From: Candidatus Altimarinota bacterium
GTDB lineage: Bacteria; Patescibacteriota; Gracilibacteria; JBDHUY01
Assembly: GCA_039809385.1 (NCBI GenBank)
Contig: JBDHUY010000002.1
Coordinates: forward strand, 1-64,000
Direction: 5' to 3'
Length of the DNA: 64,000 nt
This document shows positions 34,027-41,202 of the stretch, piece by piece. The notes under the pieces are model-generated. The model saw only the letters and a list, made by a program, of their open reading frames with translations. It was not told the DNA's origin and made no database searches. Position numbers and translations under genes: made by a program. Within the stretch, counting starts at the first letter, position 1; each line of letters begins with the position of its first letter.

Positions 34027-35988
34027 TTATTTTTTCAGTTCCTCGATCTGATCCCGGATGATCGCGGCTTTTTCGAACTCCAGATTGATGGCGTACATAT
34101 CCATCTCGAGTTCCAGTTTGGCAATCATGTCGCGCTTGTCGTTGCTGGAAAGTTTCTTCTTGCTCTTGGACCGACGTTCGCTGTCTGGAACATCGCTTTT
34201 GGTCATGCCGATATCTTTGATTTTGGACACGATCGTTTTGGGCACGATGCCATGCTCTTCGTTATATTGTTCCTGAATCTTCCGGCGCCGACGGGTCTCC
34301 TGAATAGCCCGTTTCATACTGTCGGTCTCTTTGTCGGCGTAGAGCACGACCATGCCGTTGGCATTGCGCGCCGCCCGCCCGATCGTTTGGATCAGCGCCG
34401 TTTCGGAGCGCAAAAAACCTTCTTTGTCAGCATCCAGGATGAGAATGAGAGAGACTTCGGGAATATCCAGACCTTCGCGCAGCAGATTGATGCCGACCAG
34501 CACGTCGAACTTGCCCAGACGGAGGTCTTTGATAATGTCGATCCGTTCTAGCGTATCGATATCCGAATGCAGGTAGCGTACCAAGATACCCTGGTCGTTA
34601 AGATAGTCGGTCAGATCTTCGGCCGATTTTTTGGTCAGCGTCGTGATCAGTACACGTTCCTTGTTTTTCACGCGCTGCTGGATTTCGTAGAGAATATCGT
34701 CGATCTGATGCTGGGTGGGACGTACTTCAACGATCGGATCGAGCAATCCGGTCGGACGGATAATCTGCTCAGCGCGATGCTCCTGACTATGTTCGAGCTC
34801 GAATTTGGCCGGAGTAGCCGATACAAAAATGACCTGGTTCAGTTTTTTTTCGAATTCGTTAAACTGTAACGGCCGGTTGTCCAGAGCTGAGGGAAGCCGG
34901 AAGCCGTGCTCGATCAGCATGGTTTTGCGGGCCCGGTCGCCGTTATACATGCCGCCGATCTGCGGTACGGTCATGTGCGACTCGTCGATCATCATCAGAT
35001 AATCCTTGGGGAAATAATCGATCAGGGTGGTCGGTGGCTCTCCGGCTTTGCGACCATCGAAATACCGCGAATAATTTTCGATCCCGTTGACCGTTCCGGT
35101 CTCCTGCAGCAATTCCATGTCGTACTCCGTGCGCTGTTTTAGGCGGTAGGCTTCTACGATCTTTCCCATTTCGTTTAGCTGGGTGAGTCTTTCTTCCAGG
35201 TCTTTTTCAATAATGGGGACGACCGCCTTGATCTTTTCCATGGGCGTTACATAGTGTTTTGCCGGGGTCAGAATATACTCGCTTCGTTCTTCGAAAACCT
35301 CGCCCGTGATCGGATCAGCCAGAGAGATTTTTTCAATCTCGTCGTCAAACATTTCCAAGCGGACTACGAAATTTTCGGAGGCCGGATAGATTTCGATCAC
35401 GTCTCCCAGCACTTCGAACATGCCGTGTTTGAAATCCATGGTACTGCGCACATATTGCATCTCAACCAGCTTCTTAAACAGCTCCTCGCGGGGAATTTTG
35501 TTGCCGGCTTTCAGATATACGAAAAAACTTTGGTAGTCTTCGATCGGTCCCAAACCATAGATACATGACACTGAAGCCACTATAATAACATCCCGGCGGG
35601 TGAGAAGCGAAGAGGTGGCGGCGAGGCGATATTTGTCGATCTCTTCGTTGATCATGGTCTGCTTTTCGATGAAAGTATCGGTTTTTGGAATATAGGCTTC
35701 GGGCTGGTAGTAGTCGTAGTAGCTCACGAAATAGTGGACTGCATTTTTAGGAAAAAACTCTTTGAGCTCGGCAGCCAGCTGCGCGGCCAGCGTTTTGTTG
35801 TGTGAAATGACCAGAGTGGGACGCTGGATGGTCTGGATGACATTGGCCATGGTAAACGTTTTACCGCTGCCGGTAATCCCCATCAGTGTCTGGTAGGCGA
35901 CCCCGTCGGTAATTCCGCGTACCAGCTTGTCGATCGCCTGTGGCTGGTCGCCCATGGGCTTAAAAGGGGAGGTGAGTTGAAAATGCAT
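34027..35988 (-). CDS. uvrB: Excinuclease ABC subunit B
   Basis: [36 protein letters not shown]. Confidence 0.98.
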
Positions 35989-36190
35989 AGCTTAAAAAAA
36001 AGCGTATAACTAAACGATTATAAACTCTTTGAATGAGAAAGCAAAAAGAAGACAGCTTACTAGCAGCTGACAGGGAAAAACCTAACAAATTGAATGAGGA
36101 TATCGGGTAATGTTTTCTACCGGGTAACGTTGGGTTTGTATCTGGAAAATGGATAAAATTATCCTGTAGCAGCGTATTCTATAGATCTGC

Positions 36191-36219
36191 TTGTCTGCTC
36201 ATCTAAAACTCTGTACAAT
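36191..36219 (+). promoter_or_regulatory. sigma70-type promoter for the T-box leader
   Basis: TTGTCT-N17-TACAAT. Confidence 0.55.
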
Positions 36220-36231
36220 GAAATCAGGAAA

Positions 36232-36453
36232 AGCGCTACGATTCTTGCAATCACAAGAACATTCGTTCCAGTCGGAACGAAGCGCCGGGAAAAGAAAGCT
36301 TGCCTATTGTAAGCAATTAGACTTCCCCGGAAGAACAACCTCCCGTGACGAAAAAGGGCATGAAGCGGTCCGACGAAATGTCGGACAATCAAGGTGGTAC
36401 CTTCCGCCGGATGGCGGAACCTTGAGCACAAAATATTTTTTATGCTCTTTTTT
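36232..36453 (+). promoter_or_regulatory. T-box riboswitch, Ile (AUC) specifier, ultrashort Stem I
   Basis: UUCUUG-CAAUCA-CAAGAA stem I; stem II with AGAA/UUAGA internal loop; CCCGUGAC; stem III; antiterminator UCAAGG-UGGUACC-UUCCGCC..GGCGGAA-CCUUGA; upstream of ileS. Confidence 0.9.
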
Positions 36454-36711
36454 GTGAAGAATAAAGTCTTTGAGATTGTTGGCTGGTGCGGATTCATAAC
36501 CGCATTGTCGGGGTTGTATTTTTTAGAATCTGACTATTGGGACGCTGTCAGTCTGGATTTTGAATATACTCTCTTGTTTCTGGGTAGCTTTGCGATGTCT
36601 ATTCCGACATTCAGACGCAAAGCATATCCCGCTGGATTATTTATGGCGGTTCTTGGGATTTATTTTCTATGGCGTGTATATATTCTATTTCTTGAGAGAG
36701 ATTTTGTGTAG
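36442..36711 (+). CDS. Small membrane protein
   Basis: Three hydrophobic segments; ATG directly after the T-box. Confidence 0.55.
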   Translation: MLFFVKNKVFEIVGWCGFITALSGLYFLESDYWDAVSLDFEYTLLFLGSFAMSIPTFRRKAYPAGLFMAVLGIYFLWRVYILFLERDFV

Positions 36712-36716
36712 ATATT

Positions 36717-37004
36717 ATGAAAAACTCTTTATCTCAACTGCGTCTTTTCTTCTCGGGCTATGTGCAGGGAGTGGGTTTCCGTTCCTTCATTGCCAAGACG
36801 GTACGAAACCATCCGAATGTCTGCGGATTTACCCGGAACCTCGATGACGGCCGAGTTGAAACTGTGTTGGAAGGAGAGAAAGAGATATTGAATAAAATAT
36901 TTGAACAAATAGAAAAAGGCTGTCCCGGCTCTACCGTGGAAAACATCAAAACACTATGGGGGAAGAAGGAGCAACGGGAATTCTTTCAGTTTACAGTGTA
37001 CTGA
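36717..37004 (+). CDS. acyP: Acylphosphatase
   Basis: GYVQGVGFR, G..RNL.DGRVE. Confidence 0.93.
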   Translation: MKNSLSQLRLFFSGYVQGVGFRSFIAKTVRNHPNVCGFTRNLDDGRVETVLEGEKEILNKIFEQIEKGCPGSTVENIKTLWGKKEQREFFQFTVY

Positions 37005-37013
37005 AGGGCAATT

Positions 37014-37245
37014 GTATCTAGTATTAAGTATCAGGTATCTTGCAATTGATTTTTCTCTGGTTTCTTGTATTTCTACCCGCTGCCCATTCATTTCTTTATA
37101 GACTTTAGGAACTTTATGGACTTTCACCTGTTTCCCGGGCAGACATATGGGTCTGCAGCTACATTTGTCGATGCCTGAAGGATAAATGACGACCTACCCC
37201 CCTCCGCTTTACAAACTTTACGGACTTTATCATTTTATAGACTCT
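37014..37245. repeat. Stack of repeats (GTATCTA heptamers, ACTTTATGG nonamers, degenerate GTAG-type REP)
   Basis: GTATCTAGTATTAAGTATCAGGTATC; GACTTTAGGAACTTTATGGACTTT; GGGCAGAC..GTCTGC..CTAC at 37137-37162. Confidence 0.65.
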
Positions 37246-37248
37246 CCT

Positions 37249-40200
37249 ATGTTCAAACCCGTTAATCCCAAGGTCAGTTTTTCCGAAATCGAGAAAGAGA
37301 TTCTCTCATATTGGAAAAATAACCGGATTTTTGAACGTTCAATAAAACAGCGCACTCAGAAAGAGTTTACTTTTTACGACGGGCCGCCGTTTGCCACGGG
37401 ACTTCCTCACTATGGCCATTTGCTGGCCGGAACATTAAAGGATGTCATTCCGCGTTACTGGACGATGAAAGGGTATCGCGTCGAGCGTCGTTTCGGCTGG
37501 GACTGTCACGGCCTCCCGGTAGAAAACGAAAAGGAAAAAGAACTCGGGATAACCGGTAAAAAAGATATCGAAGCGATGGGGGTCGGCGCTTTTAACGAAG
37601 CCTGCCGCTCGATCGTGCAGCGCTATGCAGGTGAGTGGCGCCAGACCGTGGAACGCACGGGCCGCTGGGTCGATATGGATAACGACTACAAGACCATGGA
37701 TACCAGCTATATGGAATCGATCTGGTGGGTCTTTAAACAGTTGTGGGATAAAGGATATGTGTATGAGGGAAAGAAAGCGATGCAGATCTGTCCGCGCTGC
37801 GTGACCCCCCTATCGAACTTTGAAGTGACGCAAGGGTATAAAGATATTACCGACTGGTCAGTGATTGCTAAATTTCCTATTACAGATCCAGATTTCTTGA
37901 AAAAGTACGGGAACGGAATAAAGACCAGCTTTATCGCCTGGACCACCACACCGTGGAGTATTCCAACCACGATGGGACTGGCGATTGGTCCAGACTTTGA
38001 CTATGTGTTGGTGCGTACCGGCGAGGAACAGATTATTGTTGCCAAAAATCGTCTTGAATATGCGGTAAAATCCCTAGAAGAGGGGAGTTGGGAGGTCGTG
38101 GAAGAATTGAAAGGCAAGGAACTGACCGGTCTTGCGTACGAACATCCATATGCATTTATTTATGGACAGAACGAAGAGGTGAAGAATAATGCCAACGTTT
38201 ACAAAACCTACGCTACAGATTATGTCAGTATCGAAGACGGTACCGGTATTGTTACTATCAATGGTGCTTTCGGTGAAATCGATATGGAGGCGGCCAACCG
38301 TTTGGAATTACCGATCGTGATTAACGTCAAAATGGACGGAACGTATACTGACGACATGGGTGAACTGGCCGGGCATCACGTCAAACCCAAAGAGGATCCG
38401 ACCAAGATGGATCAGAAAATCGCCGAAGATCTTGAAAGCCGCGGGTTTCTGTTTCGCCGCGAAAAGTATTTGCACAGTTATCCGCACTGCTGGCGCTGTG
38501 ATACTCCTCTTTTAAATTACGCTACCACCAGCTGGTTTGTATCAGTGACCAAATTAAAGGAGAAGTTGTTGAAAAATAACGATAAAACATCCTGGGTGCC
38601 GGATAATATCAAGTACGGCCGTTTCGGAAAATGGCTTGAGAATGCGCGCGACTGGGCTATTTCGCGCAACCGTTACTGGGGATCGGTTATGCCGGTATGG
38701 AAATGCGATAGTTGTGAAAAAGTCGAGGTTCTCGGCAGTCTGGAGGATCTGCGTGCTAAAGTTCCGGAACGAATGACCAAGCTTATTCTGATGCGTCACG
38801 GCGAAAGCGAAACCAATGTCAAAACCGAAGTCTGGTCAAAAGACGATCGCTATCCTCTCACTGAAAATGGACAAAAAGAGATTCATACGCTTGCCGCCGA
38901 CCTGGAACACTATGATGTCATGCTTGTTTCGCCCGTACTGCGAGCCCGTCAGAGTGCCGATATTCTCAAACAAAAGTATGGTACTGATTATGCGGTCGTT
39001 GAGCAGTTACGCGAAAATAATATGGGTACGTGGGAGGGACTACCTGCGGCAGAACATCTGGAACAGCTCAAAAAATATCATGAACTGCCTTTGCAAGAAC
39101 GCTATCAAGCCCGGATGGGTGGCGGAGAGAATTGGGTCGACATTGAAGCGCGGGTCTCCGAATTTCTCAAAAACACACTCTCGCAGTATCGCGGCAAAAC
39201 CGTAGCGATCGTGACACACAAATCGATCATCGTTACGCTACACAAACAGTTAAGCGACTGGACGCTGAATCGTTTCTTTGCGATCGACGAGGGCGCCGAG
39301 TGGCTCAATAAAAGCGTTATCTATGTCGATAACGAGACCGGCAAAGAATTCGATCTGCATAAGCATGTGGTTGATGAAATCACGTTTAAATGCTCTCCCC
39401 CTGATAAGGGGGAGTTGGAGGGGGGTTCTCACTGTTCAGGTACTATGAGACGCATTCCCGAAGTGCTCGACTGCTGGTTCGAATCGGGCAGTATGCCCTA
39501 TGCTCAGGTGCATTATCCGTTTGAAAATAAAGAAAAGTTTGAACAAAACTTCCCGGCCGATTTTATCGCCGAAGGGCAGGATCAGACCCGCGGCTGGTTC
39601 TATACGCTGATGGTGCTTTCGACCGCCTTGTTTGACCAGCCGGCATTTAAAAACGTGATCGTCAATGGCGTGATCCTCGCCGAGGACGGCAAAAAGATGA
39701 GCAAGCGTCTGAAAAACTATCCCGATCCGGCCTATATGCTGGATACGTATGGTGCCGACGCGATGCGTTTTTATCTTATGAATTCTCCGGCAGTGCAGGC
39801 CCAGGATCTGCGCTTCTCCGAAAAGGGAGTGGATGAAGTTGTTAAGTCGATTCTCCTGCCGTTCTGGAATGCGTACAGCTTTTTCGTGACGTATGCGAAT
39901 ATTGACGGGTGGGATTCAAACGGTCAGCGGTCAGTAATCAGCAAGCAGCAAGGAAAGGCCGACAGCCGACAGCTGACAGCTGACAGCTATGACCCCCAAC
40001 TTTTTTCCAACAAACTTGACCAGTGGATTCTGTCCGAACTTCAGGCCACGGTGGAGCTGGTGACCCAGCGACTGGACAAGTACGATCTTTCCGGTGCGAC
40101 CGAGCCCCTGGCAGCCTTTATCGATGGACTTACCAACTGGTATATCCGTCGTTCGCGTCGGCGTTTCTGGAAATCGGAAAACGATACAGATAAAAACGAA

Positions 40201-41202
40201 GCATATACGGCACTCTACACAGTGCTGGTGACTTTTTCCCAATTATTAGCGCCATTTGTGCCGTTTATTTCCGAGGAAATCTATCGCAGTCTGACGGGCG
40301 AGGATTCGGTACATCTCACCGATTGGCCGCAAGTAAATCGAAATCTGCTGAATGTCTCTCTCAATACCGAGATCGATCTGGTGCGGACGGTGGTGACACT
40401 GGGATTGTCGTTACGGGCCAAAAACAAGGCCAAGGTGCGCCAGCCTTTGAGCAAACTACAGGTTGTGGTACCTGAACATCTTCGTGGTGTTGTAACAGCC
40501 TATCATGATGTGATTGCCGAAGAGTTGAATGTGAAAGTGGTCGACTTGTTGCACGATTCGAGCGAGATCTCGGTCAAAATGATTAAGCCGATCGGGGCGC
40601 TGGTGGGACCGAAGTTTGGCAAAGACGCTCAAGCAGTGATTACCAATGCTAAGACTGGCAACTTCCGGGAAGCAAGCGGCCAGCGGTCAGCGATCAGTGA
40701 TCAGGAGGGGCCAGAAAAATCCCCTCTTGAGAGGGGTGGCCCGGAGGGCCGGGGTGTGAGCCTCGAAGGCACGAATGATTCTTCACAAGATACTTCTCGA
40801 AATCCCGGTTTGATCGTCTTTGACGGCCAAGGCAAGGAATGGGAGCTACTATCGAATGAATATGAAGTGGTCTACTCGGGTAAGGAGGGCTTTGACGCGG
40901 CCTCGAATCAAGGCGTGGTGGTCTCTCTGGATCTGCATGTTACCGAAGAACTGCGGCTGGAAGGGCTTGCCCGCGATCTGGTGCGCGCGATTCAGGATAT
41001 GCGCAAAGAGACCAACTATCAGGTTTCCGACCGTATTCGGATTTCTTTGCAAGGAGTTGATCCGCAGGTTTTGGCTCAATTTCAGGAGTATATTGTGAGT
41101 GAGACGCTGTGTTCGAAGTTGGAAGAAAAGTTGGAGAATCCGGATCTGGAAAGGGAGATTGAGCTGGAAGGGGAGAAGGTACTGGTAGGTATAAAGCGCT
41201 AG
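37249..41202 (+). CDS. ileS: Isoleucine--tRNA ligase (type 2) with inserted histidine phosphatase domain and repeat-derived insertions
   Basis: DGPPFATGLPHYGH, GWDCHGLP, WTTTPW, DWAISRNRYWG, EGQDQTRGWF, KMSKR. Confidence 0.97.
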   Translation: MFKPVNPKVSFSEIEKEILSYWKNNRIFERSIKQRTQKEFTFYDGPPFATGLPHYGHLLAGTLKDVIPRYWTMKGYRVERRFGWDCHGLPVENEKEKELGITGKKDIEAMGVGAFNEACRSIVQRYAGEWRQTVERTGRWVDMDNDYKTMDTSYMESIWWVFKQLWDKGYVYEGKKAMQICPRCVTPLSNFEVTQGYKDITDWSVIAKFPITDPDFLKKYGNGIKTSFIAWTTTPWSIPTTMGLAIGPDFDYVLVRTGEEQIIVAKNRLEYAVKSLEEGSWEVVEELKGKELTGLAYEHPYAFIYGQNEEVKNNANVYKTYATDYVSIEDGTGIVTINGAFGEIDMEAANRLELPIVINVKMDGTYTDDMGELAGHHVKPKEDPTKMDQKIAEDLESRGFLFRREKYLHSYPHCWRCDTPLLNYATTSWFVSVTKLKEKLLKNNDKTSWVPDNIKYGRFGKWLENARDWAISRNRYWGSVMPVWKCDSCEKVEVLGSLEDLRAKVPERMTKLILMRHGESETNVKTEVWSKDDRYPLTENGQKEIHTLAADLEHYDVMLVSPVLRARQSADILKQKYGTDYAVVEQLRENNMGTWEGLPAAEHLEQLKKYHELPLQERYQARMGGGENWVDIEARVSEFLKNTLSQYRGKTVAIVTHKSIIVTLHKQLSDWTLNRFFAIDEGAEWLNKSVIYVDNETGKEFDLHKHVVDEITFKCSPPDKGELEGGSHCSGTMRRIPEVLDCWFESGSMPYAQVHYPFENKEKFEQNFPADFIAEGQDQTRGWFYTLMVLSTALFDQPAFKNVIVNGVILAEDGKKMSKRLKNYPDPAYMLDTYGADAMRFYLMNSPAVQAQDLRFSEKGVDEVVKSILLPFWNAYSFFVTYANIDGWDSNGQRSVISKQQGKADSRQLTADSYDPQLFSNKLDQWILSELQATVELVTQRLDKYDLSGATEPLAAFIDGLTNWYIRRSRRRFWKSENDTDKNEAYTALYTVLVTFSQLLAPFVPFISEEIYRSLTGEDSVHLTDWPQVNRNLLNVSLNTEIDLVRTVVTLGLSLRAKNKAKVRQPLSKLQVVVPEHLRGVVTAYHDVIAEELNVKVVDLLHDSSEISVKMIKPIGALVGPKFGKDAQAVITNAKTGNFREASGQRSAISDQEGPEKSPLERGGPEGRGVSLEGTNDSSQDTSRNPGLIVFDGQGKEWELLSNEYEVVYSGKEGFDAASNQGVVVSLDLHVTEELRLEGLARDLVRAIQDMRKETNYQVSDRIRISLQGVDPQVLAQFQEYIVSETLCSKLEEKLENPDLEREIELEGEKVLVGIKR

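Follow-up and report, generated by a model that had tools for sequence, protein, structure and literature searches.

A T-box leader upstream of ileS

We analyzed a stretch of 64,000 nucleotides (nt) from a Candidatus Altimarinota bacterium (contig JBDHUY010000002.1 of assembly GCA_039809385.1; the window) in which a leader RNA, read directly from the sequence at 36228-36425 on the plus strand, precedes a small hydrophobic open reading frame (ORF), an acylphosphatase gene, and ileS, with uvrB lying upstream of the leader on the opposite strand. An earlier note on this DNA had described the leader as an isoleucine (Ile) T-box riboswitch with an ultrashort Stem I, and all of the motifs that it placed were found at those positions when we re-read 35900-36800. 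The element at 36228-36425 is almost certainly a T-box with Ile specificity; the coordinates of its parts and of the genes that follow it are collected in Table 1.

Table 1. Features of the T-box leader and of the downstream genes (minimum free energy, MFE)
Feature	Positions	Strand	Description
Promoter-like site	36191-36219	+	TTGTCT-17 nt-TACAAT; 9 of 12 consensus matches
Decoding domain (three-way junction)	36233-36285	+	closing helix P0 GCGCU 36233-36237 / AGCGC 36281-36285, enclosing Stem I and a second hairpin
Stem I (ultrashort)	36242-36259	+	6 bp, UUCUUG 36242-36247 / CAAGAA 36254-36259; terminal loop CAAUCA 36248-36253
Specifier	36250-36252	+	AUC (Ile codon), then A36253; in the terminal loop of Stem I
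Extra hairpin (hairpin 2)	36262-36281	+	8 bp, 36262-36269 / 36274-36281; loop AGUC; inserted in the 3' strand, after Stem I and before the closing helix
Stem II	36287-36327	+	base GGGAA 36287-36291 / UUCCC 36323-36327; distal helix 36298-36302 / 36310-36314
Stem II S-turn strands	36292-36297 and 36315-36322	+	AAGAAA and AAUUAGAC
Stem IIA and F-box	36328-36348	+	36328-36332 / 36341-36345; F-box CCGUGA 36343-36348
Linker with RAG motif	36349-36367	+	A36363 A36364 G36365
Stem III	36368-36386	+	7 bp, 36368-36374 / 36380-36386; loop GAAAU
Antiterminator helix A1	36389-36425	+	6 bp, 36389-36394 / 36420-36425
T-box bulge	36395-36401	+	7 nt, UGGUACC; between helices A1 and A2
Antiterminator helix A2	36402-36408 / 36413-36419	+	7 bp; loop GGAU
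Weak terminator-like hairpin and U6 tract	36424-36453	+	5 bp, C.A mismatch, 4 A-U pairs, and tetraloop (36424-36447), then U6 36448-36453
18-bp long-range helix (predicted)	36348-36365 / 36438-36455	+	5' strand / 3' strand; in MFE and centroid folds
89-aa hydrophobic ORF	36442-36711	+	first after the leader; no Pfam family
Acylphosphatase gene	36717-37004	+	Pfam PF00708, 62.9 bits
ileS	37186-41202	+	1338 aa; TIGR00392 889 bits; Pfam tRNA-synt_1 and Anticodon_1

Among the features that mark membership in the T-box class, the leader has a specifier followed by a purine, an S-turn Stem II, Stem IIA with an F-box, a RAG motif, and a UGGNACC bulge between helices A1 and A2. In place of the long Stem I with its K-turn, specifier internal loop, AG bulge, and distal platform there is a 6-bp hairpin. 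This ultrashort Stem I with a terminal-loop specifier, which the earlier note had recognized, was borne out by the alignment of related leaders and by folding of their 5' domains, and the other parts that had been named (the S-turn Stem II, F-box, RAG motif, Stem III, and T-box bulge) are conserved in homologue alignments, with Stem III found in only part of the family. The proposed Stem II needed amendment: its GGGAA/UUCCC base stands, and CGG 36328-36330, taken before as an extension of that stem, belongs to Stem IIA, where it pairs with CCG 36343-36345 in the homologue alignments. In the accessible parts of two papers the F-box is described as CCGUCA or CGUCA (PMC7583486, PMC11297988), and the accessible part of the second gives the role of the RAG motif as sensing of the tRNA 3' end. 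In the window, CCCGUGAC lies at 36342-36349. The MFE of 36225-36460 has a z-score of -5.1. A scan of the region for promoter-like sites found 3 where 2.4 were expected, so the site listed in Table 1 is weak evidence alone; judged from it, the transcript likely starts about 7 to 9 nt upstream of the element.

Conservation and covariation of the leader family

With an IleS N-terminus query we found ileS in 380 of the 401 genomes of the class, and we assembled a search set of 40 class ileS upstream regions (two batches of 20) and 80 named loci from the species collection. A scan of these upstream regions for the T-box core motif found leaders before ileS in 6/20, 7/20, and 14/80 cases, and every one of them has a 4- to 6-bp hairpin with AUC in the terminal loop. 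The 27 leaders so found, which come from related genomes and include that of the window, were aligned with MAFFT and used to build a covariance model (R1), which identified 31 non-seed members among the loci examined. At E <= 1e-5, R1 has matches in 65 of 151 genomes of the class and in 50 of 151 genomes of the phylum, the source genome being counted in both. By these counts the family is common in Patescibacteria and is no rarity in genomes of the candidate phyla radiation (CPR). A hand cross-check of the 29 R1 matches for which the position of IleS was listed showed that 23 precede ileS on its own strand at a distance of no more than 700 nt, that 4 others lie 1.2 to 2.3 kb upstream, and that 2 are elsewhere. 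With the ileS-leader model, a separate match of 73 bits was obtained ahead of a gene for a pyridoxal-phosphate (PALP family) enzyme (L013 1502-1751, minus strand), in a genome (G014) in which IleS was not found with the IleS N-terminal query.

In the 27-sequence MAFFT alignment, AUC and GGUGGUACC are invariant, and the F-box (CCGUNA) and the S-turn blocks GAAGAAA and AGUAGAC are conserved. The AAAUNAAG block ends in an AG that is invariant in 27/27 sequences (A36364 and G36365 in the window) and corresponds to the RAG motif of PMC11297988, as described in the accessible part of that paper. RNAalifold run on this alignment predicted Stem II, Stem IIA, and helix A1, with compensatory changes in 17 of 21 pairs. 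A second alignment, fitted to the model and comprising 58 sequences (57 distinct), has 88.3% of cells paired compared to 62.7% in shuffles, and 27 of its 29 pairs show changes on both sides, which makes the covariation check that had been proposed for CPR ileS leaders a strongly positive one; none of 500 shuffles reached any of these measures, and slid registers gave at most 54%. Helix by helix, Stem I (helix 1) has double changes in 4/4 pairs, the Stem II helices (helices 2 and 3) have 96.5% and 85.8% of cells paired and double changes in 10/10 pairs, Stem IIA (helix 4) has 92.6% of cells paired, and antiterminator helices A1 and A2 (helices 5 and 6) covary as well. The 58-row alignment leans to the structure by construction, and the MAFFT-based RNAalifold result does not. 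Visual inspection of relatives showed in most of them 3 bp of complementarity joining the IIA loop to the linker, as for a IIB pseudoknot, in columns that are unaligned inserts.

Specifier and bulge match the cognate tRNA

The loop triplet is AUC in 56 of the 58 family members, all 56 of which carry a UGGU bulge, and in 48 of these 56 an A directly follows the triplet (hand count). The two exceptions, AAC and GAC, both have a UGGC bulge and both precede aspS, the genes that follow being aspartate-tRNA ligases that score 601 and 594 bits against NF001750 under translation with code 25. The presence of AAC or GAC with UGGC before aspS, along with GGC and UGGA before glyS (see below), is the strongest argument for taking the terminal-loop triplet as the specifier. 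These two ultrashort-Stem-I leaders lie at L162 1501-1649 (plus strand) and L165 1501-1653 (minus strand), in genomes that both read TGA as sense, and each is followed by a terminator-like hairpin with a U-run.

We also compared the bulges of the leaders in the source genome with its tRNAs, as predicted by ARAGORN. The tRNA-Ile(GAU) of this genome, encoded at 18314-18390 of contig C23, has A73, and its tRNA-Gly(GCC) and tRNA-Thr(GGU) have U73. Bulge base U36398 of the window complements discriminator A73 of tRNA-Ile(GAU), and the variable bulge base fits the discriminator of the cognate tRNA in all three leaders of the genome (UGGU for Ile, UGGA for Gly and Thr). With AUC followed by A, UGGU facing A73 of tRNA-Ile(GAU), and ileS downstream, the Ile specificity first proposed from the letters is upheld.

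The other two leaders of the genome were found as weak matches to the Rfam T-box model RF00230, one on contig C14 before glyS and one on contig C5 with a long Stem I. The Gly T-box (L002 626-765, contig C14) has a 7-bp hairpin with a 9-nt terminal loop ending in GGC-A, a UGGAACC bulge, a canonical terminator, a short Stem III, and no evident Stem II, and it stands before an ITPase-like ORF and glyS. The same loop motif is seen in L009 and L011, and the whole L011 leader is only about 91 nt long; a Gly T-box with neither a long Stem I nor Stem II would be the smallest known to us. The Thr-type T-box (L003 1501-1673, minus strand, contig C5) has a long Stem I, ACC, a UGGAACC bulge, and a terminator, and the first ORFs within 1.5 kb downstream encode 209-aa and 206-aa proteins, not thrS.

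An extra hairpin at the base of Stem I

The earlier note had pointed to an 8-bp hairpin inserted at the base of Stem I as unusual. The hairpin is present at 36262-36281 and forms part of a three-way junction that is the MFE fold of 36228-36291 (-20.4 kcal/mol, z -3.1), and it is no one-off, for 16 of the 58 alignment rows (15 of 57 distinct sequences) have an insertion at this site, downstream of Stem I and ahead of the closing helix, and the inserted sequences are unrelated. When the 15 hairpin-bearing 5' domains were folded alone, 11 gave the same three-way junction as the MFE structure, and the other 4 folded otherwise or only partly so. The extra hairpin is thus a recurrent variant of the family and not peculiar to the window.

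The topology of this junction, in which the 3', non-bulged strand carries an extra helix where it passes from Stem I to the closing helix, is like that of the k-junction of thiamine pyrophosphate (TPP) riboswitches, which the accessible part of PMC10573300 describes as a k-turn elaborated by a third helix on the non-bulged strand. A further likeness is a conserved GA on the 5' strand right before Stem I of the family. Unlike in a k-junction, the 5' linker in the window is 4 nt rather than 3, and no tandem G.A pairs can be made out (C36260 occupies a position at which G is expected), so we regard the likeness as a resemblance only.

Expression platform

Downstream of the antiterminator, the hairpin at 36424-36447 has a predicted stability of -7.6 kcal/mol compared to -17.6 kcal/mol for the antiterminator alone. 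Loss of the two bottom pairs beside a U tract could still weaken intrinsic termination. The most stable predicted structure in this region is the 18-bp long-range helix, with which the fold of 36346-36457 reaches -49.4 kcal/mol (z -6.46), a stability that none of 200 shuffles attained. The 5' strand of the helix comprises the last base of the F-box, a run of five A residues, CAU, and the RAG motif, and its 3' strand covers both AUG 36442-36444 and the U6 tract; the helix would thus place a strong stem directly before and across U6, bury the AUG against CAU 36359-36361, and use up the RAG purines 36363-36365 together with the G run able to form the IIB pseudoknot. In the predicted fold it coexists with the antiterminator. 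A regulatory function for this helix is inferred from these models.

Hand reading of the relatives found a hairpin and a U-run after the antiterminator in about 28 of 33. In most of them the 5' strand of this terminator takes in the 3' strand of A1, a clearer overlap than that in the window, and in one group it is the T-box sequence itself. One relative, L145, has the same abutting hairpin layout as the window; a helix between its linker and U-tract is not part of its MFE fold, and by eye its A-rich linker could pair with the U-run, which is uninformative for A/U tracts.

The group in which the T-box sequence itself is paired comprises ileS leaders from one family of the class (L022, L024, L026, L044, and L048), where the 5' strand of the terminator consists of the A1 5' strand plus the bulge. 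In these leaders the T-box sequence pairs with a covarying downstream complement (CCACCU, ACCGCCU, ACCAUCUC, and others) that is followed by a U-run, so that the bulge would be directly sequestered in the OFF state. Two further relatives, L040 and L116, are without a U-run, and in both the ileS start codon is directly preceded by a sequence complementary to the T-box core, which suggests that translational versions exist inside the same family.

Proposed mechanism and alternatives

The best explanation of the locus, and in our judgment a very probable one, is a tRNA-Ile T-box leading an operon made up of the small membrane-protein ORF, the acylphosphatase gene, and ileS, the last being presumed to be the main regulated gene. 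Of this explanation, the anatomy of the element is shown, as are its conservation and covariation, the agreement of its specifier and bulge with the cognate tRNA, and its place among the genes. Since both the decoding and the sensing halves are T-box-like, we infer that the operon is turned on by uncharged tRNA-Ile. Through the terminal loop of the 6-bp Stem I, AUC would be offered to the GAU anticodon; there is no distal platform for the tRNA elbow, and the Stem II S-turn and the IIA/F-box pseudoknot region would back up decoding, with the base of Stem I elaborated into the three-way junction by the extra hairpin. The sensing half would consist of the RAG linker, Stem III, and the antiterminator, whose UGGU bulge bases would pair with ACCA, the 3' end left free in uncharged tRNA-Ile, and this binding would raise expression of the operon.

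For the output of the switch, we lean toward suppressed termination at the U6 tract 36448-36453 as the probable mode of control, and within such control termination may depend on the weak local hairpin 36424-36447. That the 18-bp long-range helix is the operative OFF stem is a tentative suggestion. In a Mycobacterium structure, as given in the accessible part of PMC11297988, the RAG motif contacts both the tRNA 3' end and the antiterminator, so tRNA binding and the 18-bp helix could exclude each other. A wider proposal, which we rate as rather doubtful when taken as a whole, joins a constitutive antiterminator and the 18-bp helix as OFF state with the idea that the ultrashort T-box is an old, phylum-wide patescibacterial device, co-transcriptional and elbow-free, that was retargeted to aspS and glyS. 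Under this proposal uncharged tRNA-Ile, to turn the operon on, would recruit the RAG purines and the pseudoknot strand into a tRNA-bound discriminator fold and would thereby pull 36348-36365 out of the terminator or sequestrator.

Several observations tell against a T-box-led operon under termination control. With regard to identity, the match obtained in a genome-wide RF00230 search, the Infernal check that had been called for, is full length (36229-36426, 25.9 bits, E 6.4e-4) and lies far under the curated gathering cut-off of 93 bits, below which the relatives also fall (best among those searched, 56.7). Scans with Rfam cmscan listed no match in the whole window at gathering scores and, at E <= 10 across 36000-36700, no T-box, only three chance matches to small nucleolar RNA or microRNA models; we set these negatives aside because the genome-wide search, with its looser first look, did find the element. 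That the RF00230 match is more than chance is supported by 14 control genomes searched at E <= 0.01, among which only five had matches, all of them bacteria, and no archaeon did. The R1 score of the window, 88.8 bits, is not independent, since the window is part of the seed and scores by construction. The only same-family genome examined (86% complete) has no R1 match, and the roughly 2 kb of sequence that precede its ileS showed no leader. In the window itself, the ileS start lies 760 nt past the element with two ORFs in between. With regard to the platform, no canonical, mutually exclusive terminator is evident, the hairpin 36424-36447 overlapping helix A1 by 2 nt only, and on thermodynamics alone the switch would rest in the ON state. 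Between the element and ileS we found no sequence that convincingly complements either the 5' strand of the T-box or the 3' strand of the antiterminator, the best duplexes lying in coding sequence, and a consensus terminator scan of the plus strand returned none, the hairpin 36424-36447 included.

An unlikely alternative to control at the U6 tract is translational control, with the helix 36348-36365 / 36438-36455 sequestering the first-ORF AUG 36442-36444 until uncharged tRNA-Ile engages the RAG linker. The helix is the MFE and centroid structure (z -6.46) and covers that start codon, the ultrashort class is translational in the accessible part of the published account (bioRxiv 10.1101/2023.02.28.530422), and relatives L040 and L116 have no U-run and carry a T-box complement beside the start codon. 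However, no Shine-Dalgarno sequence was seen before 36442, the 3' strand of the helix ends in the U6 tract as a terminator would, and terminator-like hairpins with U-runs follow about 28 of the 33 relatives. The ORF whose start would be hidden shows little conservation (weak relatives in 3 of the 400 other genomes of the class), and ileS lies 740 nt beyond, so that coupling would be needed. In the predicted fold, moreover, the helix coexists with the antiterminator, and their exclusivity would be a tertiary argument only.

The absence of a canonical terminator, and an antiterminator 10 kcal/mol more stable than the sole local terminator hairpin that it overlaps by 2 nt, would also fit a relaxed or decaying T-box, one that tRNA may still bind with a platform that no longer switches and an operon that is constitutively read through. 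The patchy presence of T-boxes before ileS in the class, with none in the same-family genome, points the same way. We consider such decay improbable, since the conserved functional positions are all intact (AUC-A, S-turn, F-box, RAG, UGGUACC, A1, and A2), the score of 88.8 bits is mid-range for the family (the window being in the model seed), the hairpin and U6 are still at the family's usual place, L145 shares the abutting layout, and the 18-bp helix could serve as a strong stem for the OFF state.

That the element is not a T-box at all, and consists of chance hairpins or of part of a coding frame (the mechanical ORFs 36191-36457 on the plus strand and 36159-36497 on the minus strand overlap the region, and neither Rfam scan lists a T-box), is scarcely credible and already fails on covariation (27 of 29 pairs with compensatory changes in 57 sequences), on the T-box-defining blocks that are invariant in the family, on a location before ileS that is repeated in many genomes, and on the covariation of specifier and bulge with the downstream synthetase.

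Operon and host

The first ORF after the leader has weak relatives only, in the 3 class genomes mentioned above, and we could neither confirm nor dismiss it as a gene. The 181-nt spacer between the acylphosphatase gene and ileS holds no stable or terminator-like structure and folds no better than shuffles (z +0.76). A complete His_Phos_1 domain (Pfam, 118 bits) is inserted in the catalytic domain of IleS at residues 533-700 (window positions 38782-39285), and many IleS frames of the class are 1,200 to 1,600 aa long, so that large insertions seem common in the lineage.

The nearest IleS loci come from metagenome-assembled genomes (MAGs) of Peribacteria, Gracilibacteria, and other Patescibacteria, which agrees with the CPR host proposed before and identifies the organism, as judged from sequence similarity, as a Peribacteria-like CPR bacterium. 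Some members of the class read TGA in frame. We did not find ilvC or ilvD in the genome (1.87 Mb, 95% complete), while both are present in 14 of 14 controls. This result fits isoleucine auxotrophy, and is consistent with the amino-acid auxotrophy that had been suspected, without being proof of it.

Relation to known T-boxes and significance

Compared to the class I transcriptional T-boxes described by RF00230, such as those of Bacillus tyrS and glyQS, the family has the same specifier-purine, S-turn Stem II, IIA/F-box, RAG motif, Stem III, and UGGNACC bulge between A1 and A2, the same match of the fourth bulge base to the tRNA discriminator, a synthetase gene as target, and, for most relatives, a hairpin and U-run downstream. 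Unlike them, the family is without the long Stem I, the AG bulge, and the distal double-T-loop platform, and the terminator of the window barely overlaps its antiterminator.

The second point of comparison, made by description only, is the ultrashort ileS T-box of Actinobacteria such as Mycobacterium. In the accessible part of the account that defines it, this class is translational, has its specifier in the terminal loop, and in all cases regulates ileS (bioRxiv 10.1101/2023.02.28.530422); the accessible part of PMC7583486 calls it mostly actinobacterial, and that of PMC7778990 indicates that the class II model of TBDB was run on Actinobacteria only. The two groups share a short Stem I, a terminal-loop specifier, the lack of an elbow contact, and the pairing of Ile with ileS, which for the actinobacterial class are also described in PMC7583486 and PMC11297988, along with the S-turn, F-box, RAG motif, and bulge. 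The family described here differs in its host phylum, Patescibacteria, in being mostly followed by a terminator-like hairpin and U-run and not by a Shine-Dalgarno sequestrator, in serving aspS as well (GAC, AAC), and in the extra hairpin that builds a three-way junction in a quarter of its members. The window itself has no Shine-Dalgarno sequence or sequestrator of the published type that we could see, and its AUG at 36442 can be buried in the predicted 18-bp helix.

The mechanism class is thus a textbook one, and its distribution and combination of features were not found in the searchable literature. Our full-text search, with subscription journals and supplements outside its reach, found no paper linking a T-box with CPR, Patescibacteria, Saccharibacteria, Parcubacteria, or Gracilibacteria. 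The family, present in roughly one-third to two-fifths of the Patescibacteria genomes sampled, contradicts the picture in which the ultrashort form belongs to Actinobacteria, acts on translation, and serves ileS alone. According to the accessible part of PMC7583486, transcriptional T-boxes generally need a long Stem I; the published argument that they do so for fast tRNA capture is likewise contradicted by the family. If an OFF state made by the 18-bp helix beside a constitutive antiterminator were true, it would be a kind of T-box logic that has yet to be described.

Leaders of this kind are missed by the Rfam cut-off and by searches confined to Actinobacteria, which matters for the annotation of CPR genomes. 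As small natural RNAs of about 140 to 200 nt, they offer material for structural and kinetic study of a co-transcriptional decision made without elbow contact. For the organisms themselves, the family would mean that bacteria in which ilvC and ilvD were not detected still monitor the charging of tRNA-Ile.

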